IMG/VR virus record: IMGVR_UViG_3300032431_000003
Span: 13,926-77,925 of that record
Strand: one strand, 5' to 3'
DNA: 64,000 nt
Origin: a virus
A program made the translations under genes and the position numbers. Positions 6,853-63,444 of this stretch are shown piece by piece. Position 1 is the first letter of the stretch; the number at the start of each line of letters is the position of its first letter. Under the pieces are notes generated by a model, which saw only the letters and a program-made list of their open reading frames with translations, searched no databases and was not told the DNA's origin.

Positions 6853-6880
6853 TAACCAATCAACCTAAAACACAGGTATC

Positions 6881-8300: not shown

Positions 8301-8391
8301 GGGGCAGATTCTGCATACCTCATATCTGAGTAATGTAGAATCCCTCGAAATCAAGGAATTCCCGCAACAGCTAAAACAAGGAGAGACGAAG

Positions 8392-8859
8392 ATGACCACT
8401 AACGAATTAATTCAAGAAATAACTTCCCGTTTCGCTGAACTCAAAACCCTTCCGGTGACTAATACATCCGCAGTAACTATACTACGAAGATGGCTAGGGC
8501 AACTCAATGCTTTGGATAACAATGCCGAAGCTAACAGTCTAAAGGCTGAGATTGACAGTAGAATTGCCTTGTATCTGTACGTTGGGCAGAAGGTTTCTCT
8601 CAGAGGACAGTTCAACTATGACGGCGAAGTCATAGATATCTTAGTCACTATCACTGAATTCAGGGAAGACCCAAGCAAGAGAGATCAGATGCTTGTTGAC
8701 TACCGAATGGATAAAAGAAGTGTCGGCTGCACCCTTCTCGATGGGGCGGAGACCATGCTCTCGCTGGGCAAGGGGTGGAAGATCGTTTATCACGTTGAAA
8801 CCGAAAGAGATGCTAACCCCGTCCTAACTGTAGAGCGAATAGTTCCACCTCAAAGTTAA
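8392..8859 (+). CDS. hypothetical protein
   Basis: AAGGAG RBS, 155-aa ORF. Confidence 0.7.
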   Translation: MTTNELIQEITSRFAELKTLPVTNTSAVTILRRWLGQLNALDNNAEANSLKAEIDSRIALYLYVGQKVSLRGQFNYDGEVIDILVTITEFREDPSKRDQMLVDYRMDKRSVGCTLLDGAETMLSLGKGWKIVYHVETERDANPVLTVERIVPPQS

Positions 8860-8861
8860 CT

Positions 8862-12959: not shown

Positions 12960-12965
12960 CAAAAC

Positions 12966-13484
12966 CTAGGGGATAGGGGGAGTTGGAGGATTTACCTCAT
13001 TGCTGGCGTAAGTAAAGAAGTTGGGATTGAAGCCACAGGACTCAAGGAGAGCTTCGGCTTCTGTGATTTCGGCGGGAGTAATGGGAGCATTCATTTGATC
13101 TAGCGTTACTTGTAATCCGAAGATTGCAAAGCCCAGAGACCGCTGATCCTGTCCGATGCCGATTACTTCGGATATCTGCCCCATGATGCCATTAATTGCC
13201 AATGAAGTTACACGGAGCCCTTGCATTCTTTGAAACAACGAATTATCTTTCATTCGTTTTCCCAACTTGTCCCAGTAAGGAGGTGGATCATTTCTAATAA
13301 TCAATTGCCCATTAACGTATTCAATGTCGAATATCTGACCCCACCAGTCGGGGATAACACCTTTTACCCAGCCAAGAGAGTCTAACTCTACGCTGTTCAA
13401 GGCATCTGCATTGGGGAGGGTTTCCTTGATCGCCTCCGAGCCACGATGCAAACCTGTTGAGAGTTCGTAATAGATGGTAGCCAT
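12966..13484 (-). CDS. hypothetical protein, possible tail fibre assembly protein
   Basis: directly downstream of the Gly-rich fibre-like gene; tight spacing. Confidence 0.45.
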   Translation of the reverse strand: MATIYYELSTGLHRGSEAIKETLPNADALNSVELDSLGWVKGVIPDWWGQIFDIEYVNGQLIIRNDPPPYWDKLGKRMKDNSLFQRMQGLRVTSLAINGIMGQISEVIGIGQDQRSLGFAIFGLQVTLDQMNAPITPAEITEAEALLESCGFNPNFFTYASNEVNPPTPPIP

Positions 13485-13486
13485 AA

Positions 13487-14329
13487 TTAACCAAAGAATC
13501 TTAGATGAATAAACCCATGCCCAGCCTGATCGTTGTTTGTGTTGCTAGTTCCCACGCCACCGCCGGGGTATCGAGGATCGGTATTGAGAGGGGGTGTTGC
13601 TCCTACGCCTTGACTGGTAAGCGCAGAGGTTCCCCCGGCAAACCCAGAGCCGCCAGCACCGCCAGAGGAATTACCACCACCACCACCACCAAAGAGACCA
13701 CCGCCACCAGAGCCTCCATAGAGTGATCCGTTACCGCCTTGGAAAGCGGAGCCAGCAGTCCCACTCAGGGAACCTGCACCACCAGCAGACTGAGTGCCAC
13801 CACCGCTAGTTCCCTGCCCTACTCCACTTCCTCCAGTGGTTCCCCCGCCTACACCGCCCGTCGATCCTGCATTGTAACTAGCACCACCCCCACCACCCGC
13901 CGTAGCTAATTCGGTGGAGGTTCTACGAATTGCGCTTCGACCACCTCCTCTGCCGGAAAAGGAGCTACCATCCCCAGAGCAAGACCCAGAGCCGCCGTAG
14001 CCACCCGCTCTGCTTTGGATTGAGGCAGTTGTACTTAAGCCACCCTGCCCTATGATGGCAATCAGTGACTCCCCGCCAGTGACAGTAAGGATTCCCGTGG
14101 TCGCCCCGCCAGCCCCGCCTCTGATTGGGGTAATATTAGTTGCCCGACTCCCCGCCGCACCCCAAATAATATATTCACAAGAACTGTACCCAGCAGGAAC
14201 CAAGATATCCTGATCTGCCCCCGTGTAAGCATAAGTCTGAATAATCTCAGGTAAAGGGGGCAAGTCCTGACTGCTGAATAGCGAGACTGTCCGTGTGCCA
14301 CTCTGTTGTCCAAGGCTATGTCTAAACAT
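13487..14329 (-). CDS. glycine-rich domain tail fibre/receptor-binding protein
   Basis: YTGADQ..VPAG, WGAAG, GGAGG, GGGRSAIR, AGGGGG and GGGGGG motifs of the glycine-rich (polyglycine helix) domain; start chosen at MFRHS. Confidence 0.7.
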   Translation of the reverse strand: MFRHSLGQQSGTRTVSLFSSQDLPPLPEIIQTYAYTGADQDILVPAGYSSCEYIIWGAAGSRATNITPIRGGAGGATTGILTVTGGESLIAIIGQGGLSTTASIQSRAGGYGGSGSCSGDGSSFSGRGGGRSAIRRTSTELATAGGGGGASYNAGSTGGVGGGTTGGSGVGQGTSGGGTQSAGGAGSLSGTAGSAFQGGNGSLYGGSGGGGLFGGGGGGNSSGGAGGSGFAGGTSALTSQGVGATPPLNTDPRYPGGGVGTSNTNNDQAGHGFIHLRFFG

Positions 14330-15047
14330 AAATAGCCCCCACTGCATAAATATTCACTACGCTTGCCACGGAAGCCCTCGCCCTGATTGATCGAGCCAAG
14401 TCTTCATAGCAAACTTGGAACGGATAAGAGAAGTCAAGAACCGCCCCAGCCGCTAAAGTTATCTCTAGGAATTCTTCGGCAAGAGCAGGAGTCCCTGGGC
14501 TATTGCCACTGGGATTAACCAGATGCCAGATTTCTACAAGTACGGCTGCCGTGTGGGTATTTGAGATGGATATCCCAGTTATGAAAGTTTTCTGGGATGC
14601 AGGGTTTTGGAACACGATGGAGGTACTAGCTCCCGTTCCTGTGCCGAGCAAGATCGGTTCTGCTAATCGAGTGGAGAAAGTTAGTTGGGATGCTACCGTG
14701 GATTCGATTGACCCGCACACCGTAGCCGTTACCACGTTATTCACTGTTGCCGAGGCGATTAAGGCTCGATTGGTTTCGGGGTAGCAATTAACTTGAGGAA
14801 TTATCCAATTAAGAGTTGCCTTTGAAGCCAAGGTAAACTGAACTCGATAAGCCAGACTGGGGGAGCCAACATTCCCACTACTAGGAGGAATCCCATTCCA
14901 GAGGGTGACAGTCACGGGGGCTGTGTGGGAATTAAACAGAACCACCCCAATCACATAGCTAATCTGGCTGGCGGGGTTAGCCAATAGGGTCGTGTTGCTT
15001 GTCCCAATTAAGGCAGGTAAAACTAATTGTTTTTGGGCAATTGCCAT
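14322..15047 (-). CDS. structural protein with two tandem homologous domains
   Basis: NPASQ..(V/I)xGxxxxN(S/T)HTAxVxVxxW...P(S/A)LA...TLA occurs twice. Confidence 0.65.
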   Translation of the reverse strand: MAIAQKQLVLPALIGTSNTTLLANPASQISYVIGVVLFNSHTAPVTVTLWNGIPPSSGNVGSPSLAYRVQFTLASKATLNWIIPQVNCYPETNRALIASATVNNVVTATVCGSIESTVASQLTFSTRLAEPILLGTGTGASTSIVFQNPASQKTFITGISISNTHTAAVLVEIWHLVNPSGNSPGTPALAEEFLEITLAAGAVLDFSYPFQVCYEDLARSIRARASVASVVNIYAVGAIYV

Positions 15048-30689: not shown

Positions 30690-31486
30690 TAGCAAGCCAC
30701 CTTTCTTCCTGTGTATTTAATCTTGTAGGTAGAGCAACCGCCAAGGGACTGGTCTAGTCGGAACTTGATGGGTACATCGGCTGCGCTTGGATCAAAGGAG
30801 TTCCCGGAGATCGTTGGCGATACGTTGTCAGCTTCAAAGGTCACGATGGTATTATCCACTGAGTGAACAAGGATAGCTTTAAGCCTGTAAGCTCCGACGG
30901 GTAAGTCGCCTAGTTGCAGTCCTGCTACAATAGGCTCCTCAGTGATAACAGTAACAGTTTCGCCAGCCAAGGCAACAGGGAATCTAAGAGCCCCAGCCGC
31001 CCCTATCATCCAAGAATTTACGGCAACTGCCCCAGAAGCAGTCCAAGGAACTCGTATTAGCTGCTGGGAGACCCCAAAGGTTCCCTTGACAGCAGCCTTG
31101 GCATTGGGTTCATCGACAACAACACCGAAACCCTCAATGTCAATGAGTACGGGGGGAACTTCTCCGGTGGCGGGAATTGTCAACTCTCTAATGACCGGGG
31201 CAACCAAGCCCGTAGCTTGGAATTTGCGTCCAAAAAGTAGCTCCAAAGCCTCCGGTTGGCGATGCCCAAAGGAGATAGACAAGGTAGGCTTCTCTGAGGA
31301 CTGATAGGAACCCATTGTTACCATCTTAGCCAAGGGGTTCATCCCTTCTTGGATTACTTCTTCAACTCCTAGATCAAGCTGCATCGACTTTGGAGTGGGA
31401 ATGTGAAGAATGTTTCCGGTGGCTAATTCTTGGAGGCGAATTTTACCAGCCCCTTTGATAGTGTTCTGAAACTTAGCTAGAGTCAT
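30689..31486 (-). CDS. major tail (tube) protein
   Basis: 265 aa, beta-rich, N-terminal KGAGKIRL; canonical position before the chaperones. Confidence 0.7.
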   Translation of the reverse strand: MTLAKFQNTIKGAGKIRLQELATGNILHIPTPKSMQLDLGVEEVIQEGMNPLAKMVTMGSYQSSEKPTLSISFGHRQPEALELLFGRKFQATGLVAPVIRELTIPATGEVPPVLIDIEGFGVVVDEPNAKAAVKGTFGVSQQLIRVPWTASGAVAVNSWMIGAAGALRFPVALAGETVTVITEEPIVAGLQLGDLPVGAYRLKAILVHSVDNTIVTFEADNVSPTISGNSFDPSAADVPIKFRLDQSLGGCSTYKIKYTGRKVAC

Positions 31487-34540: not shown

Positions 34541-35389
34541 CTACTCGTAAACTTCTAAGCCAGCAATGGGGATGATGATGTTATCATCTCGACGAATCAA
34601 GATGTTGCGCTCAGGAGGGAATCCACCAAAGTACCAAGGAGTCCCACCACTCGCCGTAGTGTAAATCCCAAATGACTTAGCCAACTCCCAGTTAGCTGTA
34701 GCATCTGCAAATTTAATCTCAACCAAGTTAGAGATTTTGCGATTTACACCGGGAGGCGTAAAGGTTCCTGCGGCTGCGGGAAGTTGAACCCGTGCATAGC
34801 CAGGGGCGTTAGCACTAGTTAGTTCTCCAATGTCTCCAACCCCTAGCTGAGAAGTAGGCTTTGTACCCAATCCAATGTAGATACTGTTTCCGGGGAGGCT
34901 ATAGGATTGCCCAAGAAGTAGCGACAGTTGTTTTCCTGCCAACTCATCGGACTTCCCTGTATTCCCAGAATCCAAAGTAAGCATCAGGCGGTTAGGCGGG
35001 AACTTAACATAGTTACCTTGAGGGCAATTCTGTCCAGTCACCAAGTGCATGAAGAACCAAGGAATCGTGCCAGCCAGAGTAGGAAAGATGCCAGCAGACT
35101 TAACTTCTTCATCCCAGTTGACCGTTGCGGGACCAAAAAGTTGAGTCTGAGTGTTGAAAGCACTCCGACCGCTGACTACCCATGCAGATGCGGCGGAAGC
35201 ACTGTTGATATTGAAACGAGCATAGCCGTCTCCGACAAACTCAATGCCAGCGAAGTCTCCAGTGTTAGGCGGTAAGTTTTTACCTAGCCCAATATGGAAG
35301 CTGCCAGTCCCGTAAGGAGAGTCACAGGCTTGTCCACGGAGGACATTCAAGAAATTAGCTGCAAGTGGTTGAGAGATACCTTCTGCCAT
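34541..35389 (-). CDS. structural protein with two tandem domains (fibre/whisker-like)
   Basis: IGLG...GYAR...N...F..AT.NW...KS.GI...G..PW(F/Y) occurs twice. Confidence 0.7.
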   Translation of the reverse strand: MAEGISQPLAANFLNVLRGQACDSPYGTGSFHIGLGKNLPPNTGDFAGIEFVGDGYARFNINSASAASAWVVSGRSAFNTQTQLFGPATVNWDEEVKSAGIFPTLAGTIPWFFMHLVTGQNCPQGNYVKFPPNRLMLTLDSGNTGKSDELAGKQLSLLLGQSYSLPGNSIYIGLGTKPTSQLGVGDIGELTSANAPGYARVQLPAAAGTFTPPGVNRKISNLVEIKFADATANWELAKSFGIYTTASGGTPWYFGGFPPERNILIRRDDNIIIPIAGLEVYE

Positions 35390-35406
35390 AAAAGCTCCTT
35401 ATATTT

Positions 35407-36015
35407 TTAGTAATCTATGGACTCTCTTTGATCAGAAAGTCTTCGTCTTTCTCGAATAGTGCCAATACCAAAATCGATATCGGCAAGCTCTCCTGAAACT
35501 CTTCGCCGCCCAATGATTGCCTGGTTTCGACTCAGGGTATCTGGCGGTCGTAATTGAAGTTGCTCCCCCGGAAGGACAACTGCTTCCATCCCCGGCTGTT
35601 GAGCATTAACTCCTGGAATAGCAAGATTGTGTCCGGCACAGTACATACCAAGCAATTGGCTAGCTCTACTGGCGGAATTCGTTCCCATCCCTGAGACATC
35701 ATTGCCTAGTTGAGGGGAAGGACTTGACTGGTAATAAACGCCCATGAGATCAGCGACAATCAAGTTTTCAATGATCTCAGAGAGGATAGCCCTAGTGTCT
35801 TGCTCAACGAGAGCAAGGGGAAACACGTAGATTCTTCGGAGAATCGAGTTGACATAGGCTTCTTTCTGTTCGCCAATCTGTCCAATCAACTCTTCATTGG
35901 CAACCATCTCCCCTAAGTTCTTAGCCCAAGGTTCACTGAAACCATTGGTAGGCACATTGAGCCGACCTTGGAGTCTTCGAGCTATTGCGTGGGTGGTTGT
36001 GTAAATCAGGGGCAT
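35407..36015 (-). CDS. head-tail adaptor (Mu gp36/SPP1 gp15-like)
   Basis: YTT..., EAYVNSILRRIYVFPL, LSEIIENL pattern; follows the capsid genes. Confidence 0.65.
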   Translation of the reverse strand: MPLIYTTTHAIARRLQGRLNVPTNGFSEPWAKNLGEMVANEELIGQIGEQKEAYVNSILRRIYVFPLALVEQDTRAILSEIIENLIVADLMGVYYQSSPSPQLGNDVSGMGTNSASRASQLLGMYCAGHNLAIPGVNAQQPGMEAVVLPGEQLQLRPPDTLSRNQAIIGRRRVSGELADIDFGIGTIRERRRLSDQRESIDY

Positions 36016-36030
36016 TGATTATCCTCTTGG

Positions 36031-36537
36031 CTATTTAGATGATCTAGCTTTTCTAAGTTGAAGTGCTTGAGCCGTTAGTTCGAGCCCTCTCTCCCTAAGT
36101 CCCAGTCCTCGATCTCTGATGTCCAGTCCCCTGTTGGCAGAGGCAATCCGACCGAGTACGCCCATCCTTCCCGTCCTACTTTTGCTTATTCGTGATCCAA
36201 TTCGAGAGGTTATATCCCCTCTCCTGAGTCCAGAATCGAGGAACCCTCCGACTAGACTTAGCCGACTTGATGACGGCACAGGTCTAGAGGCAATCTCACG
36301 AGCCATTCTGTATTTCTTGACCAGTTGAAAGTCCTTAGCTCCCCTAGCTACGTTGTAGTAAGCCTTGGTCAAATTGTTAGCCGAATTAGCCAGGTGAGTG
36401 GTTCTCAATACCGCCTTGTCAAGGGCTTCGCCAGCATTGAAGGGCACTGCGTTCCGCTTCCTCAAGGAGTTGCTAATCTTCCGCTTGTGAGCAGCCGATA
36501 GCTTCTTCCTGAATTCTGCGATGTAAGGAGTGTTCAT
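36031..36537 (-). CDS. basic protein with AEF leader and NUMOD3-like motif
   Basis: MNTPYIAEF|RKKLSAAHKRKISNSLRK. Confidence 0.7.
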   Translation of the reverse strand: MNTPYIAEFRKKLSAAHKRKISNSLRKRNAVPFNAGEALDKAVLRTTHLANSANNLTKAYYNVARGAKDFQLVKKYRMAREIASRPVPSSSRLSLVGGFLDSGLRRGDITSRIGSRISKSRTGRMGVLGRIASANRGLDIRDRGLGLRERGLELTAQALQLRKARSSK

Positions 36538-43904: not shown

Positions 43905-44837
43905 TTATCTAGCCCTCCGTCCCGAAGCCCTCTTCAGTATTTTGGCAAAATTAGCCAATTTACCTGCATTGGCGGACATCTTTGCTTGAGACAAGTCTTG
44001 CTGCCTTGTGACGTAGCTAGGGTCTTGCATCCCACTCATTCCTGGGTAGCCATCGGGGGCATCTTCGCCACCATCTAATCCCAAGAGTTCAGCGAGACGA
44101 TCCGAGAGACCACCAATGGCATCTTCGACAAGCATCGCTGGGTCTTCGCCCATCAAGGTTGATTCGTCTGCCTGAGAAATACAGGTAACAATCTCCCAGA
44201 ATTTCTCAGTGATTTCTTCGTACTGTTCCTTGAGTTCGTCGATTTGGGTTTGCTCCTCTTCTGCATCATCCCAAGTCAGCGAAAAACGAGCATCACTGTT
44301 GTGCTGCCTGAAAATACTCAGTCCAACAATGGCTGGCTGAGGAGTTGCCGAGATTTCCTTGATAGTATTCGTAGCTACATCGATACCGGGAGAAAGAGTC
44401 TTGATTCTTCCCGACATTACCTGAGCTACAATATCTTCGCCCTTGGCTACTAACTGCCCAAAAGCTCCCAACTTACCGACCAGCTTTCTTAGTCGGGGAT
44501 TAGGAAGGTCATTTTCAGTAATGATGCGGATTTCCAACTCGCCTTCTAAGTCACCAATGTTGGCACTCTGAGTCTTGTCGTGGTCTTTTTGCCAAGGGAT
44601 TCTGCCGCCAGCCCGAAGGAAGGCATTGGTTTTCTCAACTAAATCACGAAGTCTTTCTTGGGAGAAGGTGTGGGGTCGCTTCTGGGAGTCGTGGTGATTG
44701 CCTTCAATCATCAGCAAGGCTTCCTTGATTAGAACACCGTCTTCTTGGTCTTCTTCGGCAAAGCTGGCGGGAGTAAGCCCCAGTCCAAATGGGGAAAGAA
44801 ATTCTAGTCGTTTTGACCGAGGTTTTGGTTTGGGCAT
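43905..44837 (-). CDS. prohead maturation protease (Mu gpI-like) with acidic C-terminal domain
   Basis: IPWQKDHD..ANIG (His), IKTLSPGI (Ser) and ISATPQPAIVGL motifs of herpes/U35-fold phage proteases. Confidence 0.75.
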   Translation of the reverse strand: MPKPKPRSKRLEFLSPFGLGLTPASFAEEDQEDGVLIKEALLMIEGNHHDSQKRPHTFSQERLRDLVEKTNAFLRAGGRIPWQKDHDKTQSANIGDLEGELEIRIITENDLPNPRLRKLVGKLGAFGQLVAKGEDIVAQVMSGRIKTLSPGIDVATNTIKEISATPQPAIVGLSIFRQHNSDARFSLTWDDAEEEQTQIDELKEQYEEITEKFWEIVTCISQADESTLMGEDPAMLVEDAIGGLSDRLAELLGLDGGEDAPDGYPGMSGMQDPSYVTRQQDLSQAKMSANAGKLANFAKILKRASGRRAR

Positions 44838-53380: not shown

Positions 53381-53837
53381 GACCATAAAATCTGCTACCG
53401 GGACTCCTAGCCGCATGAGTAGTACGGGGATTGCTACAAACATAACAACTACCCACAGTTATCTTAACGAGATTATGGAACTACTGATAAACAACGAGTT
53501 CTATCGCAATGAAGACATTCCTTGCCGAACAACGACAACAACTTCTAGTTACGATGCCAGCGATCCAACAACTTCGATCAATGGCACAATCTTGCAACTA
53601 ATTATCGTTGATGGGACAACGGGAACTCCGGCTCCCTTGGTAACAAGAACAATGACTATTACTTATAATTCCGACTCTGAAGTTCGAGGATTTGCAAAGC
53701 TGGCTATAGCTGACCTTGCCACTCTACCAGTCAACTCCACTGTCACCCTAGAATACCGAGTGTGGGCTACCTTTCCCGGATCAGTCCGTAATCTTGTAGA
53801 GCGAGGCACGTTTAAGTCTAAGCCAGCATTGCTCTAA
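53379..53837 (+). CDS. BppU-like beta-rich hypothetical protein
   Basis: EFYRNED...LEYRVWATFP...LVERGTF; start either 53379 or 53475. Confidence 0.55.
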   Translation: MTIKSATGTPSRMSSTGIATNITTTHSYLNEIMELLINNEFYRNEDIPCRTTTTTSSYDASDPTTSINGTILQLIIVDGTTGTPAPLVTRTMTITYNSDSEVRGFAKLAIADLATLPVNSTVTLEYRVWATFPGSVRNLVERGTFKSKPALL

Positions 53838-54286
53838 ACAACGAATAGATCAACTCCCCGTACCGACTCTGTGCCAGCAACTTCCTGAAGGAGTCCCTGA
53901 GTCACCCGAAGTGTCCTTCCTTTTAGGTGGAATATTGCCATCTTCCACTCGTCGTTAGCTTCGCTGTGTAACTTGTCGATAGCAAAAGGCACATTGACTA
54001 TCTTTGGCTTTAGCCTTGTCCTGTCGGCAATTACGGTGAATTCCGATGCCGACAGTAGGCATAAGCACTCTCCAATCAAAGAGTAAAGCTCAATGGTCTC
54101 TGGGAGGAGCTGAGTTCTCCACGCTAGATCAATGATTTGAGGCAACAAATGAAGCCTGCCTTCGATCTGGACAAGGAGAGTTAGCGCAGAAAAGTCAAGG
54201 ATTGTCACGGATCGAGCGGTGTTAATCAATGCCAATTCTTCAAAGCTGATAGCTGTCTGATCTGGAGCTAGAACGAACTGCCTCAT
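53834..54286 (-). CDS. hypothetical protein
   Basis: ATGA coupling to the FtsK-like gene. Confidence 0.6.
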   Translation of the reverse strand: MRQFVLAPDQTAISFEELALINTARSVTILDFSALTLLVQIEGRLHLLPQIIDLAWRTQLLPETIELYSLIGECLCLLSASEFTVIADRTRLKPKIVNVPFAIDKLHSEANDEWKMAIFHLKGRTLRVTQGLLQEVAGTESVRGVDLFVV

Positions 54287-55767
54287 GATTTCTCTCTCTT
54301 TGTATTTATGTCTTTAGTATAATTAATTGCTTGTTCTGCGTTGACAAACAGCGACTGACAGCGTTGATCCTCTCCGGCAGCACGGAATACCAAGTCCCCC
54401 TTGCCTAGTAACTTGTGAGCGGGGAAGTCGTTGTCACCCAAGATAATCTTTGTATTTACTATGTCTCTCATCTTTAGGGCAACAATAGCCGGAAGATTAT
54501 TGCGAAGCAAGCCGGAGACAACATCTACTGAAGGTCGCTGAGTGCATAGAATCAACGTAATTCCAGCAGCCCTTCCCTTAGCGGCAATACTGGTTACTAA
54601 GCTATTGATACGAGCAGCTTCGGCTTTGTAGGCTTTTTGGTCTTCTTCATCGCCTTCTTCGAGGATCATCAGGTCTGCGTATTCATCAATGATAACGATG
54701 TCCCAAGGCAATGGCTCGTCATCATTACTCTCGTTATAGATAGCGACACTTGCCCGTCTAGCTTCGGCACAGATTGTCATCTTCTCTGGATAAGTATTTG
54801 ATACAGTCTTCTCCAAGAAAGTCAGAGCTTCCGGCTTGTTTGTAATAACTCGTGCATTGATCGGACTTTGACTAAGCCAACCAAAATCAGGAGACTGCCC
54901 AGCAACCTTGAAGTCAATGACGGTTAATCGATACTGAGCGGGATTGTATCTAGAGAGAGAAGCAACGGCTTGAGTTAGCCAAACGCTCTTACCCCCACCA
55001 GTAGTGGCTCCTACTAGCCAGTGGCAATATCTCTCGTCGGTGACAGGCACGGAAATCAACTTACCATCGACTCCAATGCCTACGGGGATTTCAATGTGTC
55101 CATCCTTGGGCTTGTCGCAGTAATCTTTGAGTAATGGAATTGTCCATTGATCTTCGGGGAGCGTTATGTCAATAGCTAAGTGACCCGGATGAGTCGTAAT
55201 TATAGGCAGCTTGACATTCAAACGAATCATAAAATCTTCGTCATAGTGGGATATTGTCTTGACCCTAGTTCCGATAGTTGCTGGGGCAAATTTAAGCCGA
55301 ACAAACTTCGGTGACTGAGCATAGTCAATGAAGTCTAGGCTATTCTTGCCTTCTCTGGCAACAATGAGTTGGATATCCACCACCCAGTCTTCAATGCAAG
55401 CGGGGGTTTCTTTTTCCTTGATAGTAAAGGGCTTCCATCCTTTCTTTCGGGCTAGAGCCACTAATTCTGTTCTGAAGCTGGGATTCTTTGAGATCGTTGA
55501 AAGACCAAAGAGACTTGCCCCGTCAAGGTGTCCCACAGAAGCTCTCAGAGCCTCAAGGTCTTCTTCGGTGGGTTGATAAGTTGTGCTTTCTTGCTTAACT
55601 ACAAACATAAATAAATCGTTAATATCTTCAATGGCATTAATTACTTCTTTCTGGGTAAATTGTCTTTTCAAAGTTGGACGAATCTGAAGAGACTTTTGAT
55701 CGAGTAAAGCCCTGGCAAATTGCCGGAGCCAAGGGAATGTTGTTAGCAGAAGTCTAGAGGTCATCAT
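54283..55767 (-). CDS. FtsK/SpoIIIE-family DNA translocase ATPase
   Basis: Walker A HWLVGATTGGGKS, IDFK, Walker B IVIIDEYADL, GRAAGITLILCTQRPS, LLGKGD; start reassigned to MMTSR. Confidence 0.9.
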   Translation of the reverse strand: MMTSRLLLTTFPWLRQFARALLDQKSLQIRPTLKRQFTQKEVINAIEDINDLFMFVVKQESTTYQPTEEDLEALRASVGHLDGASLFGLSTISKNPSFRTELVALARKKGWKPFTIKEKETPACIEDWVVDIQLIVAREGKNSLDFIDYAQSPKFVRLKFAPATIGTRVKTISHYDEDFMIRLNVKLPIITTHPGHLAIDITLPEDQWTIPLLKDYCDKPKDGHIEIPVGIGVDGKLISVPVTDERYCHWLVGATTGGGKSVWLTQAVASLSRYNPAQYRLTVIDFKVAGQSPDFGWLSQSPINARVITNKPEALTFLEKTVSNTYPEKMTICAEARRASVAIYNESNDDEPLPWDIVIIDEYADLMILEEGDEEDQKAYKAEAARINSLVTSIAAKGRAAGITLILCTQRPSVDVVSGLLRNNLPAIVALKMRDIVNTKIILGDNDFPAHKLLGKGDLVFRAAGEDQRCQSLFVNAEQAINYTKDINTKREKS

Positions 55768-56081
55768 TTTTGTCTCCAGTTCCTCTTGAAGAACATGATG
55801 GTGGGATAAAGCAAGACAATAGTTCCCCACACAATGAGCATCAAGCATTGTAAGGCGTAATAAAAGAACAAAGCAGTAGCTCTGAACCACCAGTAGTTTC
55901 CTTTGATCGGATGCCAGTGTTGCTGGTTTTTGGCGATGGTCTCTTGGCAGTGACGACACAGAGTTACCGCATTGACCCCCAAGATAGGCTTTGCCCCCGG
56001 AGTGAAGCAATGAGTCACTTGGGGGCGATGAGTCGGGTCAAGGGCGCAGACATCGAAGATACTATTTCGTCTGTTGTTCAT
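55764..56081 (-). CDS. degenerate HNH/Zn-like domain fused to a membrane segment
   Basis: C...H...GVNAVTLCRHC, then a hydrophobic C-terminus; start at MNNRR. Confidence 0.5.
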   Translation of the reverse strand: MNNRRNSIFDVCALDPTHRPQVTHCFTPGAKPILGVNAVTLCRHCQETIAKNQQHWHPIKGNYWWFRATALFFYYALQCLMLIVWGTIVLLYPTIMFFKRNWRQK

Positions 56082-56877
56082 AGAAAGCTCTGAGGGTTTG
56101 GATAGGCTTAATTGGCTGGGAATAATGCTTCCCGTTCTGGGCGTTCTTGGGGAAGGAAGCCCAAGTCTTTGAGGACTTGAAGATTGCTTCCTCGAAGTTC
56201 CCAGCATCAACTAGGGGCAAGACACCAATCTGTTTGAGTAAGGCAATGGCGGCTTTGTCTTGATCGTCTGCACAGAATGTCTTGATTTCTGGGAAAGCCT
56301 TCTGGATGCCAGCAAAAGTGGTGGAAAGAAACTGATACTTTCCAGCAGCATCTGAGCCGTTGCGAACCCCATTGGACTGGGTAAAGCCAACGAGTCGCTC
56401 AGGGTGCTTATTGCAGTCCTGGAACTTCCCACCCCCAAAGTTAATGAAGTAACCATCTTTGCTGTAAGTTCCTTCGGCAAAGGCGATTGTGTTCAAGAAG
56501 GCTTTTCTTCTTGGAGTAACTTCGAGCCCAGAGGGTGACACTGAGGTCGCAGTAGCCGGAGCTTGGGTTTGCCAGTTGGTAGCAAACAAGACTACTAAGA
56601 TAGCCGTGGAAACAAGAGTCAGGTGATCAGACTTCAGCTTCTTGGATATAAATAGCAAGTAGAATGCCGAGAACACAATAGCCCCAGGTAATGCCCCGTA
56701 AGTCATCGCCTTGCCGCTGTCACCCTTGAGGTTCCATGCTTGGCATATTTGGGAGGCTACAGGAGGTAGCTTGCCGCATTCGTCCGAAGTTTTCCGCAAG
56801 TTAATCCCGCCAGCATAAACTCCTCCTGTTATCCCGCCCACCAATGCTGCTGTCAGTAATCCATAAAATTTATTCAT
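56062..56877 (-). CDS. membrane-anchored lambda R-like lysozyme/lytic transglycosylase
   Basis: AFLNTIAFAEGT, AAGKYQFL, QDKAAIALL and WASFP motifs; three N-terminal hydrophobic segments. Confidence 0.85.
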   Translation of the reverse strand: MNKFYGLLTAALVGGITGGVYAGGINLRKTSDECGKLPPVASQICQAWNLKGDSGKAMTYGALPGAIVFSAFYLLFISKKLKSDHLTLVSTAILVVLFATNWQTQAPATATSVSPSGLEVTPRRKAFLNTIAFAEGTYSKDGYFINFGGGKFQDCNKHPERLVGFTQSNGVRNGSDAAGKYQFLSTTFAGIQKAFPEIKTFCADDQDKAAIALLKQIGVLPLVDAGNFEEAIFKSSKTWASFPKNAQNGKHYSQPIKPIQTLRAFYEQQTK

Positions 56878-56924
56878 AAGGAAACCTTGGTAAGTTTGGA
56901 AACCCCGTCTCTTTAGAGCGGGGA
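56875..56924. repeat. dispersed ~50-bp element with CCCCG/CGGGG hairpin, copy 2
   Basis: aligns with 5415..5463. Confidence 0.7.
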
Positions 56925-56928
56925 TTCC

Positions 56929-57609
56929 TTACCTTTTTGGTAAATATTTTTCGGGGTCTTTGGGAATCGTGTTAACGAGGATTTCAAAATGCAAATGTGG
57001 ACCAGTTGAGTGTCCCGTAGAACCCACTTTGCCAATCACGTCAGACTGGCTGACTTCTTTACCAACAGAAGTAGTGATCTGAGACAGGTGGGCATACAGG
57101 GAACTGTAACCACCACCGTGATCAACAACAACCGTGAGTCCATAGCCACCCTGGGTTCCGACAAAAGTAACCTTGCCAGACTTTGTTGCCTTCACTGGAG
57201 TCCCGATGTCTGCTGGATAATCAAGCCCTGCATGGAGCTTCATCACGTTCTCAATAGGATGTAGCCTCATCCCAAACTTGCTATCTGATGGATCATCAAC
57301 TGGATGAATGAATCCTTGAGAACTCGCTGGAGCAGAGCTTGCCGTAGCTGCCGTGGCTGTCGAGGTGTTTCCGTGGATAAAAGACTTGATAGGCATTGAG
57401 ATCACTGGAACGGCTACGACAACAAGGGTAGCTAAGGCAATTCCAGAATGTACTCTTCGCTCCCACTTGCTTGAGGTCGTTGATTCCTTTGCTTGCTTTG
57501 GACTCTCCGCCTTCTCTGTCTTCTCTGTGATGCTGGGAGCTAGAACTCCTTTTATCTTCTCAACAATCTCTTCGGCTGCTGCTGAGTTTAAGTCAATCTT
57601 GATCTGCAT
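56929..57609 (-). CDS. membrane-anchored M23 family peptidase
   Basis: HAGLD, YAHLS and STGPHLHFE motifs; N-terminal TM helix; start at MQIKID. Confidence 0.9.
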   Translation of the reverse strand: MQIKIDLNSAAAEEIVEKIKGVLAPSITEKTEKAESPKQAKESTTSSKWERRVHSGIALATLVVVAVPVISMPIKSFIHGNTSTATAATASSAPASSQGFIHPVDDPSDSKFGMRLHPIENVMKLHAGLDYPADIGTPVKATKSGKVTFVGTQGGYGLTVVVDHGGGYSSLYAHLSQITTSVGKEVSQSDVIGKVGSTGHSTGPHLHFEILVNTIPKDPEKYLPKR

Positions 57610-57619
57610 ACGAACCCCG

Positions 57620-57835
57620 CTAGATGCACAAAGGATTTTTTCCGGTCTTGTCTGTAATAGTCTTGGCAAGGCTACCATCGGGAGGCGGTGGACAAGACTT
57701 TTCTTTTGGAGCTTCCTTGCTTGCCATGTCAGGAAACTTCGGCAGAGAGAATCGAAGAAAATCGGGGCTACTCAAGTTAAGTAACAGTATTGTTAACCCC
57801 AATAACGAGCAACCCCGAAGTACCCAGATGTTCAT
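57620..57835 (-). CDS. small membrane/exported protein
   Basis: hydrophobic N-terminus, 71 aa. Confidence 0.55.
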   Translation of the reverse strand: MNIWVLRGCSLLGLTILLLNLSSPDFLRFSLPKFPDMASKEAPKEKSCPPPPDGSLAKTITDKTGKNPLCI

Positions 57836-57843
57836 GGTCTTTC

Positions 57844-58200
57844 CTATTTCCCAAAGTAACCAGCTTCAATATAGGCAGGAGGAGCGGAAGAACCGCCAGA
57901 AGCCCCGATGCCTCGAACACCAGCCCTTACTTGAACTCCGTTAGTAAGAGTGCCAACAAACATCCCCCAGATTATAGGGATACCCACCGCACCAACGAAA
58001 AGAATTACCGCAGTGTTCACCCAATTCCGATAAACAAACACTCGCTGAACCGTATGTAGGGCTGACCAAGCTACGGCGTTGGGTCCGTAAAGCTTTTCAA
58101 CGTCATGGTATTTGGTTTCTGCAATTAGAATCTCCTTTCTAGAAGATTCAACGGAACCTCCGCTGGTAACAATGCTGATTTCGGAATTTCGAGTAGTCAT
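57844..58200 (-). CDS. membrane protein
   Basis: AGGAG RBS; one long hydrophobic segment. Confidence 0.65.
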   Translation of the reverse strand: MTTRNSEISIVTSGGSVESSRKEILIAETKYHDVEKLYGPNAVAWSALHTVQRVFVYRNWVNTAVILFVGAVGIPIIWGMFVGTLTNGVQVRAGVRGIGASGGSSAPPAYIEAGYFGK

Positions 58201-58210
58201 TTTTCTCTCC

Positions 58211-58576
58211 TTAACTTAGTTGGGCTAATGAACCAAAGTCAGTATCACTACTGTCTTCACCTTCTTTCTCCGTTTCTTCCTCCGTGTCTTCCTTCGAGGC
58301 TTGAGGTAAGCCACTCGCCTGAGACTGTAGCTGAGGAAGTTCTATTCCCTCTTCCGGGATTACCGTTTCTGCTAGGGACAAGACTCCTCCCACTAAACTA
58401 GCTGCTCCCAAGAAGAACAATAACTTGGCGTGAGGGTTGGGCTGGATGACTGTCTGAATGTAATTGATCTGTGGGCTCGGAGCTACATTCATCGTGTAAC
58501 TCTGAGAGCCAATGGCAATCAATGTAAACCCAGAAAGAATGCTGAACCCGCTAAAAAGTAGCTGGATAATTCTCAT
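58211..58576 (-). CDS. two-TM membrane protein with acidic tail
   Basis: two hydrophobic helices; GGAGG RBS. Confidence 0.65.
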   Translation of the reverse strand: MRIIQLLFSGFSILSGFTLIAIGSQSYTMNVAPSPQINYIQTVIQPNPHAKLLFFLGAASLVGGVLSLAETVIPEEGIELPQLQSQASGLPQASKEDTEEETEKEGEDSSDTDFGSLAQLS

Positions 58577-59269
58577 CTACTTACCTCCCTTGACTAAGTT
58601 GTCTATATTAATCTGCTGAATCTGTCGAACTGCATCGGTGTTCCCTTGGCGATCCAGCATGATAGCAAGGGAGTCATTGACAGCTTGCTGGGCTACCAGG
58701 GCTTGCTGAACTTGAGATTCATTGACCATCAATGTCGTCTCAAGGGACAGCATCTGAATGGCTACGGCTTCAAGAGCAGCTTCACTGAGCAACTGAGTAG
58801 CGGTGGGTACAACGGGAATCTTGTCGCCAGTGGCGGTCGTGTACACCTTCGTGTGACTCACAACCCCTCTAGTCGCAGCGACCATCTTGGTGTCATTGGT
58901 TTGCTGGTACTTGTACACGGCGGTTTCAAAGGTATCACCAAAATACACGCCGTCCTTAGTTGTTCGCTGAATATTGATCCACTCACGAAGTTCAGCGGCT
59001 CTCTGAATTGCTACGGTCTGAAGCAATCCGGCACTGCCAGCCGACACGTTTCTCGGATCGAAGTTGAAGGTAACTACCCCCTTGAGGAATTGATCTCTAG
59101 AACCTGCTAAGTCTGCTTTTGCATTGTCAACGGCAGTCGGTGGTGACGGTGGAAGCTCGGCGGGAGGTCGGCTCATGAGGATCAGTATCCAAGCTCCTCC
59201 AGTAGCCAAAAGAGCTACAGCAGGAAGTAGCACCGCTCTAGGAATCTTAATCTTGTTAACTCTAACCAT
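58577..59269 (-). CDS. membrane-anchored protein
   Basis: N-terminal TM helix, Pro linker, helical ectodomain. Confidence 0.7.
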   Translation of the reverse strand: MVRVNKIKIPRAVLLPAVALLATGGAWILILMSRPPAELPPSPPTAVDNAKADLAGSRDQFLKGVVTFNFDPRNVSAGSAGLLQTVAIQRAAELREWINIQRTTKDGVYFGDTFETAVYKYQQTNDTKMVAATRGVVSHTKVYTTATGDKIPVVPTATQLLSEAALEAVAIQMLSLETTLMVNESQVQQALVAQQAVNDSLAIMLDRQGNTDAVRQIQQINIDNLVKGGK

Positions 59270-59477
59270 AGTTCCCCTCGTAAGCTTCGTTGATTAATAC
59301 GTGCTGAGCAATACACAGAACTGTCAACCCCACAACCAATGGAAGGCTGAGATTCATTCCGGCAATACCAACGACGGAGTACAAGACGCTCATATGACCA
59401 ACGGCTGTAGCGGCTCCAGTCCAGATGTGAAGATGCTCGGTCAATTCACTTTTAATTATTTTGAATAGTTTCTTCAT
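59262..59477 (-). CDS. small membrane protein
   Basis: hydrophobic 71 aa; coupled on both sides. Confidence 0.6.
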   Translation of the reverse strand: MKKLFKIIKSELTEHLHIWTGAATAVGHMSVLYSVVGIAGMNLSLPLVVGLTVLCIAQHVLINEAYEGNYG

Positions 59478-59697
59478 TATTTTTGGTAGAAGCAGTTGTG
59501 AGTAAGTAAACCAGTGATTAACACCGAGAGAAACACGAGGGGAAAGAAAACTAGGTCTGGAGCGTTAAACAGCTTGCATCCGGCAGATGCTGTCATTCCA
59601 GCAAAGGAGCCAATGACAATCGATGTCTTTACTGCTACCTGCTCCTGCTCCTTCGCCTTTACTAGTAACTGGAGATACTGACCTTCGATGGGGTCTA
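59477..59697 (-). CDS. two-TM reading frame lacking a canonical upstream start
   Basis: LDPIEGQYLQLL...FFPLVFLSVLITGLL..QK*; stop overlaps the next ATG (TAATG). Confidence 0.4.
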
Positions 59698-60240
59698 GTT
59701 GCCTCCGCCTAACAGTAACTGACTCTCCTTGCGAGGCTGCAAGGCTAGTAGCTGCCTCGGTTCCTTGGGCATGAAAGCTAGCATTGATGCCACTGAGTTT
59801 GACTGGATACCGTTTCCCAATCCTAGGGCAGCTACTTGTTCTGTTAAACCAGCGGATTCAATGAGTTCGTCGAAGGGCAACTCAATGCTTTTTTGGAAAG
59901 CAACGGTTTCTAGCACTCTGTACATTGCTCCTATCTGCCGACCAGAAATAGCTGCTGCAATAGCCAAGTCTTCACTATTGCCTAAAGACATCTGCCTCGT
60001 CTGGGCTGAATGCTCAGAGCCAAAGTTCTCAACAGCGTCAGCTTCTTTCTGTCCTTGAATTGCATTTTTGATTTGGACTTGGGTTAGTCCGGTAATGTAA
60101 GACTTTGCAACCGGGGCTTCCAAGGTGATGCAGCTTCCTAGTTTCTCGGCAGATTCCAGATATGCAGTTTCTGTATGAGGTAGTCCGAGCTTGGTGTGGA
60201 CTTGACTTAAATAGACTTTTTTTGTGGTAGGGGTAGGCAT
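59695..60240 (-). CDS. hypothetical protein
   Basis: start at MPTPTT with GGAG RBS. Confidence 0.65.
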   Translation of the reverse strand: MPTPTTKKVYLSQVHTKLGLPHTETAYLESAEKLGSCITLEAPVAKSYITGLTQVQIKNAIQGQKEADAVENFGSEHSAQTRQMSLGNSEDLAIAAAISGRQIGAMYRVLETVAFQKSIELPFDELIESAGLTEQVAALGLGNGIQSNSVASMLAFMPKEPRQLLALQPRKESQLLLGGGN

Positions 60241-60241
60241 T

Positions 60242-60604
60242 TTAATCTCCAAACGGGTTGATGTTGTTTTCTTTGAGCTTTTGTAAGTGCTGCTCGACAC
60301 TGTAGTTCAAGGTAGATCGAAGGTAACTATCTAGGCGTTCCCAGAGGGTCAAGGATTGCTCCCCGCAGAAGACCTCCTCAATGAAGACGTTCCCTGTTAG
60401 TCTTAGTCCCCATCGCCTGTTCGTTGCAAGATGATAACAATCAAGTTGAGCGATCTGGTCTTGAGTAAAATAACTGTCCTTTCTTTCTGTTGGGAGTCCC
60501 AGCGCAACCCTCCATCTATATATGGTTGATCGATTGACCTTGTATCTTTTTTCTGAGAGTTCCTTGAGACTAAACTCAAGATTAATAACTGGTAGCTCTT
60601 TCAT
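60242..60604 (-). CDS. HTH DNA-binding protein (MerR/excisionase-like)
   Basis: SLKELSEKRYKVNRSTIYRW...FTQDQIAQL; start at MKELP. Confidence 0.65.
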   Translation of the reverse strand: MKELPVINLEFSLKELSEKRYKVNRSTIYRWRVALGLPTERKDSYFTQDQIAQLDCYHLATNRRWGLRLTGNVFIEEVFCGEQSLTLWERLDSYLRSTLNYSVEQHLQKLKENNINPFGD

Positions 60605-61521: not shown

Positions 61522-61848
61522 ATGCTTACCCTTGGAGACTTTTCAATTTCAGAATTCCGCCAGTTCGGGGCTAAGAACAAGCACAAAAAAATACCTGCCG
61601 TTCCGTTAAAGAAGACAGGCATCTTGGACAAGTGGAGAAAGAGGCTAAAAGGAAAACCAATGAAGGTGTACCTAAAAGGAACTGGAGGAAACAAAAGAAA
61701 GCTGTACTCCGTTGGTGGGCACTTGCGTAAAAGCCATTATGTTGTTGGCAGAACGGGATGGTATGGCAGTGGGGGAATGAATGAACTCAAAGGTACAGCT
61801 AAGCGTAGAGCAAGGAGAGTCCTTCGATCTCAGGGTGGAATACTTTAA
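61522..61848 (+). CDS. basic protein with ISEF leader
   Basis: AAGGAG RBS; MLTLGDFSISEF|RQFGAKNKHKK; TGTTAAAAT promoter at 61491. Confidence 0.7.
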   Translation: MLTLGDFSISEFRQFGAKNKHKKIPAVPLKKTGILDKWRKRLKGKPMKVYLKGTGGNKRKLYSVGGHLRKSHYVVGRTGWYGSGGMNELKGTAKRRARRVLRSQGGIL

Positions 61849-62471
61849 TGCGCCCATCTTGCCCTATAGTCTCGTGCATCAAGGTGGCACAGGTATGGGT
61901 GTCGAGAATACCTACCCAGCCCACCTGCCCAGATAGGATCAAGGAGAGCGTAGAGTTCATCGCCAGTCATTCCTTCAACCCAGAAGTCCATAGCATCGCC
62001 AGAGAGATGCCTGCTGTTGCTAGAACCCCCGGCATTGGCATTGGCTGATGGATTGCGATACCAACTGGTAATCACGAAGGGTTGTTTAATCAAGTCCCTT
62101 GCTTTTTGCGCTTCCGTAGCAATGCGAATCATCCCATCGTAAACTTCTCTCGTCTGAGGTAGTCTCTTCCCATCACGGGTAGCTTCAGCCCAAGTGAAAG
62201 CCCCGCCCTTGATGATCGAAGAAGCTAAGTCTACCTGGGAAAAGTCGGGGACAGCTTCGACTACCAACTGCTCGGAAGCATAGAGCTTAGACAGAGTTAG
62301 GGCTCCTACGATTCCATCGTTGTCAAGTCCATTACTTGACTGGAATCGCTTAACCGCCAACTCAGTGAGTAGTCCAAAGTCACCATCGTCAGAACCTCCT
62401 GGCAAAAGATTGAGTTCTATAAGTTTTGCTTGTAATTTTGTGACTGACAAGCCAACTGATCCTTTTCTCAT
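61845..62471 (-). CDS. endolysin: PG-binding domain + peptidase M15
   Basis: DGDFG..TELAVKRFQ..NGL..DGIVG; ITSWYR..N...GG...SRHLSGDAMD...HLDAR. Confidence 0.88.
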   Translation of the reverse strand: MRKGSVGLSVTKLQAKLIELNLLPGGSDDGDFGLLTELAVKRFQSSNGLDNDGIVGALTLSKLYASEQLVVEAVPDFSQVDLASSIIKGGAFTWAEATRDGKRLPQTREVYDGMIRIATEAQKARDLIKQPFVITSWYRNPSANANAGGSSNSRHLSGDAMDFWVEGMTGDELYALLDPIWAGGLGRYSRHPYLCHLDARDYRARWAH

Positions 62472-62644
62472 AAAAAACCCTCGGTTAGTTTAATTGAAAT
62501 AGCCAGAGCAACTGCTCCAAGCACAACCACGAAGAAACAAAGTATTCCTGCCATGAATACCCTGCCAGCATTGATCGCCTCTTGGATACACTCCGCCAGG
62601 ACGACCAACACTAGCAGTGCAACTAATAGCTGGAATTTATTCAT
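62468..62644 (-). CDS. putative holin (two TM helices)
   Basis: 58 aa with two hydrophobic helices, between two endolysin genes. Confidence 0.5.
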   Translation of the reverse strand: MNKFQLLVALLVLVVLAECIQEAINAGRVFMAGILCFFVVVLGAVALAISIKLTEGFL

Positions 62645-63389
62645 GGATGACTTCGCAGGCAATGGCATAATATTCTTCCCTTTCGGCTAAGCCCAAGGCT
62701 GGATCGGTTCCATTAACTCTACGGGAAACTTGTCGGCAGGTCGCCCCGGAATCAATGAAAGCGTTGATTTCGTTGTCATGCCACCAGAACCCCGACGGGA
62801 TAAATCGAGGTACGTCTTTCTTCACATACTCAATACCTTCCATTACCCTGGGGTCTTTAAGATAGTTGGAGAGCCTTCGGTAGTTATATCTGCCCGTAGT
62901 CTGAATTGGATCAAAACCCTTGAATCGCATCCCATCGCCTTCTTCAACGTTTCCTAGGTCTTCTCGTCCTTCGTAGGCAGAGCCGTCGGCTATCTCTTCA
63001 AAGTATCTCAAGCCACCGGACTCGTGGGCTATTTGGGCAAGGAAATGGCGTATCTGTGCCGGGGTGGAGATATTGAATACCTCCATTGAGCCGTTCAGCA
63101 TTACCAAGTCCTCTGGAGCTATTCTATTGTTGCAGATGAATTCAACTTGAAACTGAGTTAAAGGTAAGCAAGAAGTCTCTGCTCGACTTTTAATCAACGA
63201 CTGCAATGTCTTCGGTCCAACAATGCCATCTACGACTAATTCGTTGGACTCTTGGAAGCTTTTGACGGCGGAATCGGTGATTGCGCCAAAGTGTCCGTCG
63301 GGAAGACTAAGCAGTCCGGCAGAAGAAAGAGCTTGCTGAAGGAGGAATACTCTCCTCCCTGAATCGCCTCGTTTAAGAGTAAAGGGCAT
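62637..63389 (-). CDS. endolysin: PG-binding domain + glycoside hydrolase family 19
   Basis: LKRGDSG..V..LQ PG-binding domain; HFLAQIAHESGG, LGN, QTTGRYNY, SGFWW and RRVNG motifs. Confidence 0.88.
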   Translation of the reverse strand: MPFTLKRGDSGRRVFLLQQALSSAGLLSLPDGHFGAITDSAVKSFQESNELVVDGIVGPKTLQSLIKSRAETSCLPLTQFQVEFICNNRIAPEDLVMLNGSMEVFNISTPAQIRHFLAQIAHESGGLRYFEEIADGSAYEGREDLGNVEEGDGMRFKGFDPIQTTGRYNYRRLSNYLKDPRVMEGIEYVKKDVPRFIPSGFWWHDNEINAFIDSGATCRQVSRRVNGTDPALGLAEREEYYAIACEVIHE

Positions 63390-63444
63390 AATTATCTTGT
63401 TTAGAGGGTGTTCCTCTATTGTACCCAAAAAAATCGTTGCTCAT

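Follow-up and report, generated by a model that had tools for sequence, protein, structure and literature searches.

A minus-strand operon at positions 53834 to 60604 of a metagenomic phage sequence is colinear with a cluster of genes on cyanobacterial plasmids that has been annotated but not characterized, and this correspondence is what is new here. The DNA analyzed is a stretch of 64,000 nucleotides (the window), which forms the final 64 kb (positions 13,926 to 77,925) of the 77,925-bp IMG/VR record IMGVR_UViG_3300032431_000003. The record derives from a freshwater metagenome and is estimated to be ~71% complete. The operon encodes an FtsK/SpoIIIE-type motor ATPase, two membrane-anchored wall hydrolases and a series of small membrane proteins. 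From protein comparisons and gene order, we are confident in regarding it as a strongly diverged copy of the plasmid cluster, which we call the All7666-type operon after the ATPase encoded by the copy in Anabaena PCC 7120. Our results also suggest, more tentatively, that the operon may serve to move DNA across the envelope or between cells.

Our comparison started from the FtsK gene of Fremyella (Microchaete) diplosiphon NIES-3275 plasmid01, which is preceded by an M23 peptidase gene, a gene for a 275-amino-acid (aa) protein and a run of small genes. The same operon is present on Brasilonema pBOCT1, pCC7120beta of Anabaena PCC 7120 (with All7666 as its ATPase), Nostoc linckia NIES-25, Scytonema NIES-4073, two Calothrix plasmids (PCC 7716 / NIES-4105) and Trichormus variabilis ATCC 29413 plasmid C, and also in Fremyella/Tolypothrix PCC 7601-7712. 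All-against-all clustering gave 16 ortholog groups in a single order across seven Nostocales plasmids. In this order, the groups encode a 130-aa helix-turn-helix (HTH)-like protein, a 206-aa soluble protein, an 82-aa protein with two transmembrane (TM) helices, a 72-aa TM protein, a 281-aa protein with an N-terminal TM helix, proteins of 188 aa (two TM helices), 162 aa (one TM helix) and 113 aa (N-terminal TM helix), the M23 peptidase, a lysozyme, the FtsK protein (~725 aa), and proteins of 154 aa, 159 aa (P-loop), 421 aa (three TM helices), 168 aa (TM) and 394 aa. The All7666-type operon is a conserved cluster of 14 to 16 genes of the megaplasmids of heterocystous filamentous cyanobacteria, and it also occurs in chromosomal copies. 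A third subtype is found as two copies on a cyanobacterial contig of 6.8 Mb, where they lie 114 kb from each other (at ~2.90 and 3.02 Mb), as would be expected for a module of a mobile element. In one of these two copies, genes were detected from M23 onward only. The first-pass annotation of the window had called the phage operon plasmid-like and proposed a synteny search. This search has now located a colinear operon, homologous in part, in filamentous heterocystous cyanobacteria, where at least 11 plasmids carry it, and on one cyanobacterial chromosome. A search of the literature found no description of the operon; All7666 appears there solely as a "putative FtsK" in two-hybrid screens and tables.

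Gene order in the window tracks the plasmid order slot by slot, from the HTH gene through to the ~150-aa slot after FtsK. Five genes are homologous and share order and orientation with their plasmid counterparts, namely those for the HTH protein, the 230- to 281-aa bitopic protein, the M23 peptidase, the anchored GH104 lysozyme and FtsK. The M23 peptidase is 35% identical to the plasmid M23 protein over 193 aa (BLASTP, 5e-34; hhalign, 3e-30). The lysozyme aligns over its full length, membrane part included, at 29% identity over 278 aa (1.5e-23; hhalign, 1e-19), and the FtsK protein aligns at 28% over 354 aa (2e-26; hhalign, 6e-22), so that identities between the phage and plasmid operons lie at 28 to 35%. 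The HTH protein matches the product of the first plasmid gene (~130 aa) in a convincing alignment over 83 columns (hhalign, 9e-5 and 6e-5), and a tblastn search with the Calothrix protein matches positions 60422-60598 of the window at 4e-5. The match of the 230-aa protein to the plasmid 281-aa group emerged once a profile had been built from the relatives of the 230-aa protein itself; profile-profile hhalign then gave a probability of 96.6% (E = 5.9e-10, 179 columns), and the 17 other groups gave P values of 0.03 or higher. Within the plasmid collection, matches that align with 80% or more of the lysozyme query, its membrane part included, were confined to 11 Nostocales plasmids; phage records yielded zero such matches, and the remaining matches consisted of the catalytic domain alone. 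No other phage segment matched the genes of the plasmid operon.

The proteins of the phage operon that could not be matched agree with their plasmid counterparts in size and membrane topology. A 39-aa open reading frame (ORF) occupies the slot of the plasmid 82-aa membrane protein, and the 181-aa protein is the positional counterpart of the plasmid 206-aa protein. Single-sequence hhalign comparisons of the other small proteins (positions B, C, D, F, G and H) with their plasmid counterparts gave P values of 0.02 to 0.5 along the diagonal; a rough Fisher combination of seven diagonal values, with position L added to these six, comes to ~0.007, which is no more than suggestive of homology to the counterparts. 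The two operons also differ in several respects. The phage ATPase is shorter (494 versus ~725 aa), the phage has an additional 105-aa Cys/His membrane protein before the ATPase, and the downstream P-loop, 3-TM, 168-aa and ParB-like genes of the plasmids are absent from the phage operon.

In the window, the operon consists of 13 tightly coupled genes, all on the minus strand, running from 60604 down to 53834. ATGA overlaps join the 105-aa gene to FtsK and FtsK to the 150-aa gene, and gaps of 0 to 10 nucleotides separate most of the others. The upstream boundary of the operon is likely to be the minus-strand segment 60746-60775. This segment contains a terminator-like hairpin at 60773-60754, with 6 G-C pairs among its 8 and a T-rich run after it, and, overlapping it, a promoter-like TTGCCA-18-TATATT site, which was found by a consensus scan whose overall site counts were not above those of shuffled sequences. 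The first gene encodes the 120-aa HTH-like protein (60242-60604; no Pfam match) and is followed by genes for a soluble protein of 181 aa, or 201 aa from a GTG at 60300 (59695-60240; no family match), the 39-aa ORF with one hydrophobic helix (59477-59596), whose stop codon overlaps the next start (TAATG), a 71-aa protein with one TM helix (59262-59477), and the 230-aa bitopic protein (58577-59269), whose TM helix is N-terminal and whose periplasmic part is mostly helical. Then come genes for a protein of 121 aa that has two TM helices and ends in an acidic tail (58211-58576), a protein of 118 aa whose single TM helix spans residues 64-82 and whose tail is rich in Gly (57844-58200), and a second 71-aa protein with an N-terminal hydrophobic helix that is either a signal or an anchor (57620-57835).

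The two hydrolases follow. The M23 endopeptidase (56929-57609; PF01551, 1.9e-32) has one TM helix, measures 226 aa from the ATG at 57609 or 249 aa from 57678, and has both its HxxxD and HxH motifs. The 271-aa lambda-type lysozyme, a lytic transglycosylase of family GH104 (56062-56877), has about three N-terminal hydrophobic helices and matches lambda lysozyme in the PDB (3d3d/1am7, 3.6e-16) and phrog_90 (1e-30), with its catalytic Glu in AFAEGT. By the positive-inside rule, the catalytic domains of both hydrolases are predicted to face the periplasm. Among metagenomic proteins, four (P0126, P0128, P0132 and P0134; 384 to 470 aa) have a lambda-type lysozyme domain fused to an M23 domain. The operon ends with the genes for the 105-aa protein (55764-56081), the 494-aa ATPase (54283-55767; PF01580, 2e-12; phrog_1358, 1e-45) and a soluble 150-aa protein (53834-54286), which is translationally coupled to the ATPase gene and has no PHROG or Pfam match.

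All the main elements listed by the first-pass annotation are thus present: a coupled minus-strand operon with an HTH gene, membrane proteins, an anchored M23 peptidase, an anchored lysozyme and an FtsK ATPase. The conservation of these genes as a block on other replicons shows that they are not grouped by chance. Its count of about six small TM proteins was slightly low, as there are seven (39, 71, 230, 121, 118, 71 and 105 aa) when the 39-aa ORF, which it had overlooked, is included. The TM protein that it termed HNH-like is the 105-aa protein, for which we found no family match; this protein has a Cys/His-rich N terminus and two C-terminal TM helices. It is no more than a guess that the 105-aa protein may anchor the motor. 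Searches of a protein atlas with the 230- and 150-aa proteins returned nothing usable. The predicted structure of the 230-aa protein was poor (pLDDT, a per-residue confidence measure, of 43 when 3 sequences were used and of 53.7 when 6 were used), and a fold search gave generic helical matches with Z scores of up to 7.6, which is within noise; hence, no fold is claimed. An NCBIfam scan of the operon proteins found nothing beyond M23 and FtsK, and PADLOC returned matches to the motor domain alone (SspH, mad8 and HerA).

The ATPase gene most likely starts at 55767, which gives the 494-aa product. Its Walker A (GATTGGGKS), Walker B (IIDEYAD) and TQRP motifs are invariant in six relatives. The protein has no hydrophobic helix and no match to the N-terminal 4TM domain (PF13491) or to the gamma domain (PF09397), whereas cellular relatives carry both domains. 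It ends ~20 residues past the motor, with no gamma or winged-helix match in Pfam. Five close relatives (45 to 62% identity) were found among 5.8 billion clusters, after which similarity falls to the level of cellular FtsK proteins; two of them, P0003 and P0005 (58% and 47% identical), are encoded on contigs of 27.7 kb and 41.5 kb. The top of the score ranking is held by cyanobacterial chromosomal FtsK proteins (33 to 37% identity, 150 to 163 bits), with the FtsK protein of Cylindrospermopsis phage Cr-LKS4 at 154 bits, other FtsK proteins at ~110 to 130 bits, an Enterococcus plasmid protein at 88 bits, Clostridium perfringens TcpA at 75 bits and an FtsK/SpoIIIE protein from a Streptomyces plasmid at 50 bits, with 13% of the query aligned. 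Similarly, a PDB search matched FtsK (2iuu; 4.7e-25, residues 150-475), TcpA (3.2e-15) and YukB (2.3e-7). The first-pass annotation had suggested a kinship with Streptomyces TraB, and this did not hold: the cut-off of the NCBIfam plasmid_TraB model (NF041214) is 800, and the score obtained was 26.8 bits over 57 residues. It had also proposed a phylogeny of the ATPase against TraB, TcpA and FtsK. In a maximum-likelihood tree, the phage ATPase family forms its own long branch, apart from the TcpA and TraB-like rows; the tree does not resolve the position of this branch.

The phage backbone is, on the basis of its proteins, distantly related to siphophages of Pseudanabaena. Genes in the window include those for a portal of the Mu type, the major head protein (phrog_29), a tape-measure protein of 2,606 aa, a fiber protein resembling GP4 gp80, ThyX and a giant MuF protein. 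For the capsid and portal, the closest counterparts belong to the Pseudanabaena siphophages Pam2 and PA-SR01 (30% and 26% identity), which supports the link to filamentous cyanobacteria proposed at first pass, as Pseudanabaena is filamentous. No FtsK-family gene occurs in Pam2, and the operon is absent from both of these nearest phages; it is therefore an acquired accessory block in a variable region between the endolysin and head genes. In Pam2, the endolysin gene lies directly before the gene that matches window ORF 43905-44837 (Pam2 locus 13173-14984), and in the window the counterparts of these adjacent genes are separated by ~18 kb (44.8 to 62.6 kb) containing the MuF giant together with a two-component cassette, the FtsK operon and an M15 gene. 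Next to the operon is a complete lysis cassette (61845-63428), in which an M15 peptidase and a GH19-type endolysin, both with peptidoglycan-binding domains, are encoded along with a TM protein of 66 aa; the operon is separate from this cassette, as had been noted before. A blastn search of phage records with the operon gave no match. In a search for related loci, no relative was found in viral or genome contigs, and metagenome contigs yielded one near-identical contig of 2.8 kb. This contig (Ga0335395_10053049, 1208-2816; 94% identity) retains FtsK and the 150-aa gene together and marks a mosaic breakpoint directly after the operon. Downstream of its 150-aa gene are a basic Gly-rich protein of 149 aa and a kinase-like protein of 226 aa, not the MuF giant. 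The first 13.9 kb of the record have almost no family matches.

How might such an operon function? It is quite possible, although we hold this only tentatively, that its proteins carry out cell-to-cell or trans-envelope translocation of DNA. We infer that the proteins form one machine and that the substrate of this machine is DNA, as well as the direction and purpose of transport. In the proposed mechanism, the periplasmic catalytic domains of the two hydrolases would open the peptidoglycan locally, the 230-aa bitopic protein and the small membrane proteins would form a platform or conduit in the inner membrane, and a soluble, gamma-less FtsK hexamer would dock on this platform and pump the double-stranded DNA (dsDNA) of the element through the envelope. 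The cells of a filament share an outer membrane and a periplasm, and this outer membrane does not extend into the septum. The route in a filament would thus consist of two cytoplasmic membranes and the septal wall only, and passage would cross only those layers that the TraB/Spd or firmicute systems cross. The phage genome could then reach neighboring cells without virions. The full proposal, that this phage, like the plasmids and islands, pumps its dsDNA genome into neighboring cells of a filament through a locally opened septal wall and independently of virions, is bolder, and we consider it unlikely at present.

Several known systems offer a measure of comparison. In Streptomyces, TraB of pSVH1 and the Spd proteins form a DNA-translocation complex (PMC4447253); the abstract of that paper lists no catalytic wall hydrolases for pSVH1, whereas the phage operon has two. 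The likeness to TraB/Spd systems is one of architecture only: a single FtsK-like motor, coupled small membrane proteins, an HTH regulator, and no VirB4. The hosts of TraB/Spd systems are multicellular and filamentous; the host here, by contrast, would be a diderm cyanobacterium. The phage ATPase differs from TraB in having no C-terminal winged helix, and the window has no clt 8-bp repeats. No family models were available for a homology comparison with the Spd proteins. The "TraB-like cell-to-cell spread" put forward at first pass may be kept as a plausible analogy only. The pCW3 plasmid of C. perfringens has, in one locus, the gene for TcpA and a gene with a glucosaminidase domain, which we take to be TcpG. 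What Tcp and the phage operon have in common is that a single operon combines wall hydrolases and small membrane proteins with an ATPase of the FtsK family. However, the ATPase matches TcpA (structures 6o1w-6o1z) less well than FtsK in the PDB search described above, the phage operon has no VirB4-like TcpF and no relaxase, and the hydrolase families differ, being GH104 and M23 in the phage. The absence of relaxase and VirB4, which had been remarked on from the sequence alone, extends to all the operon proteins and large ORFs that were scanned. Chromosomal FtsK/SpoIIIE proteins are the best sequence match of the motor, but the phage ATPase has no 4TM anchor, linker or gamma domain and is encoded in a mobile-element operon.

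Other tailed phages also encode FtsK-family ATPases, including Cr-LKS4, RM-2018a (Cylindrospermopsis), Mycobacterium Omegavirus phages, Bacillus phages and the Planktothrix phage PaV-LD. The layout of Cr-LKS4 g48-g55 (6611-11503) is alike: a Cro-like HTH gene, six small genes (three with TM helices), and then a 692-aa FtsK protein with an N-terminal hydrophobic helix. However, this module has no hydrolases, and its small proteins have no sequence similarity to those described here. The ORF122L-129L module of PaV-LD has an FtsK-family ATPase with a peptidase and an endolysin nearby. We considered whether this is the same operon and rejected the idea, as only the M23 domain is common to both, the gene order differs and the PaV-LD ATPase is TM anchored.

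Further evidence was counted in favor of a transfer function. A dedicated peptidoglycan hydrolase anchored in the envelope is a trait of type IV secretion and conjugation, and the phage operon has two (M23 and GH104); in known DNA-transfer loci such as pCW3, an FtsK-like motor is typically accompanied by anchored wall hydrolases. The ATPases of the plasmids, like that of the phage, are without the gamma and 4TM domains found in division FtsK. Finally, at sites away from the operon, a relaxase was found on 4 of 5 host plasmids and a VirD4-like protein on 5 of 5, with the relaxase 25 to 35 kb from the operon, and these five plasmids gave no VirB4 or AAA_10 match (PF03135 and PF12846), although divergent forms could escape these models, and no HK97 capsid match. 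In the two best-known model strains, the plasmid copy of the operon is interrupted. In pCC7120beta, the operon is broken between the lysozyme and FtsK genes by an ISNsp5 transposase and two reverse-strand genes (locus 11565-13867), and in T. variabilis ATCC 29413 plasmid C, one reverse-strand gene for a 381-aa protein lies in the same place (locus 8732-9877). The 280-aa protein of the plasmid operon (7799-8641 in the pCC7120beta locus, 4970-5812 in the T. variabilis plasmid C locus and 3743-4585 in a third) bears the PGAP name "phage terminase large subunit family protein," which looks wrong because the protein is of the bitopic membrane type and has no Pfam, NCBIfam or PHROG match.

There are also findings that weigh against transfer, or against too close an equation of the phage and plasmid operons. 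By hhalign, homology could not be detected between seven of the phage proteins and the plasmid proteins that occupy the corresponding positions. An approximately unbiased (AU) test borderline rejects a single clade of phage and plasmid-operon ATPases (P = 0.040), and the phage ATPase may therefore not be a direct ortholog of All7666. Nor does it have a specific kinship to TraB or TcpA. The 53- to 62-kb region revealed neither clt-like repeats nor another repeat array, and no DNA-recognition domain was found. The gene after FtsK is RusA-like in the plasmids, but the 150-aa protein at this place in the phage has no similarity to RusA (hhalign, P of ~0.1). The HIP1 motif (0 copies) and the relatives of the phage histidine kinase, which came from mixed phyla, gave no pointer to the host. 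The RusA-like and ParB-like genes of the plasmid operon, furthermore, fit the segregation or processing of DNA as well as they fit transfer.

This last point leads to the possibility that the operon acts in septal DNA segregation or clearance. FtsK would pump genome copies away from the closing septum, with the membrane proteins tethering the motor and the hydrolases remodeling the septal wall; on the plasmids, a RusA-like resolvase and a ParB-like protein would process and partition the DNA. The kinship of the ATPase with cyanobacterial chromosomal FtsK (33 to 37% identity) is in keeping with such a role, as are, in the plasmid operon, a RusA-like gene overlapping FtsK (154-aa product; phrog_1682, 7e-18; Fremyella plasmid01 locus 30720-31184) and a gene whose 394-aa product has a ParB-like N-domain (locus 35069-36253). 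All7666 itself is handled in the Anabaena field as a putative divisome FtsK (PMC7766704 and PMC9426583), and the FtsK genes of Bacillus phages have been discussed as segregating phage genomes into spores (PMC8597652). However, both ATPases are without the gamma domain, which directs FtsK and activates Xer, and without the membrane domain that targets the protein to the divisome, and segregation creates no obvious need for two anchored, catalytically intact wall hydrolases and about eight dedicated membrane proteins. The phage copy, moreover, has no detectable RusA or ParB partner, and many, but not all, of the cyanobacterial genomes searched have a separate long chromosomal FtsK-like frame. 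We judge segregation to be rather unlikely, though it is the main rival of transfer and suits several of the facts equally well.

It is more improbable that the hydrolases and membrane proteins are an accessory kit for breaching the envelope, serving a second lysis, entry or superinfection exclusion, with FtsK as a passenger. Phage endolysins and tail lysins often contain M23 and lambda-type lysozyme domains, as the PHROG matches indicate, the two domains are fused in metagenomic proteins, the first hydrophobic helix of the lysozyme is, on our reading, Gly/Ala-rich like a signal-anchor-release segment, and the thematically similar module of PaV-LD has, by annotation, a peptidase and an endolysin nearby. 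Yet a complete lysis cassette already adjoins the operon, and the block, with FtsK, is conserved on capsid-less plasmids and on a chromosome, where lysis or entry would be senseless; PaV-LD, for its part, shares the M23 domain alone and in another gene order. Judged by sequence, the hydrolases of the operon may still contribute to lysis. Export of a protein or other polymer, rather than DNA, by an ATPase of the FtsK/EssC class, as in type VII-like secretion, would account for the weak matches to EssC/EccC models (5.7e-12 and 6.3e-11) and to YukB, and type VIIb systems recruit a dedicated wall hydrolase (PMC13059805). The matches to DNA-translocating FtsK proteins are far stronger (4.7e-25 in the PDB; 150 to 163 bits), there is one P-loop domain compared with the three of EssC, and no WXG100-like gene was recognized, and such a function seems very improbable. 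A role as the genome-packaging motor, in place of the terminase, can hardly be entertained. Three Pfam models found no large terminase (TerL) in the 78-kb record, a query with the TerL of Pam2 was also without a match, and the ATPase gene lies upstream of the MuF head gene. However, the record is incomplete, and since the TerL gene of Pam2 is ~13 kb upstream of the endolysin gene, the equivalent place here falls past the end of the contig. Terminases are assumed to be retained by other tailed phages that encode FtsK-like proteins, which also counts against replacement, and the same ATPase operon is found on plasmids that have no capsid. Terminase replacement was rejected.

In summary, an operon of the same logic is common to plasmids, chromosomal islands and at least this one phage of filamentous cyanobacteria. 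To our knowledge, FtsK-driven transfer of dsDNA without type IV secretion is known solely from mycelial actinomycetes. If the operon does transfer DNA, it would point to a second and independent invention of FtsK-driven transfer in another multicellular bacterial lineage and would represent an FtsK-driven, VirB4-free route of DNA transfer in a diderm phylum, and a tailed phage would gain a particle-free means of spreading inside a filament. The assignment of All7666 as a division FtsK deserves a second look, because its gene lies inside a mobile-element operon and the protein is without gamma and membrane domains. The sister operon is carried by plasmids of genetically tractable strains, including Anabaena PCC 7120, A. 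variabilis ATCC 29413 and Fremyella/Tolypothrix PCC 7601, in which the contribution of this operon to the biology of filamentous cyanobacteria and their mobile elements may be approached.

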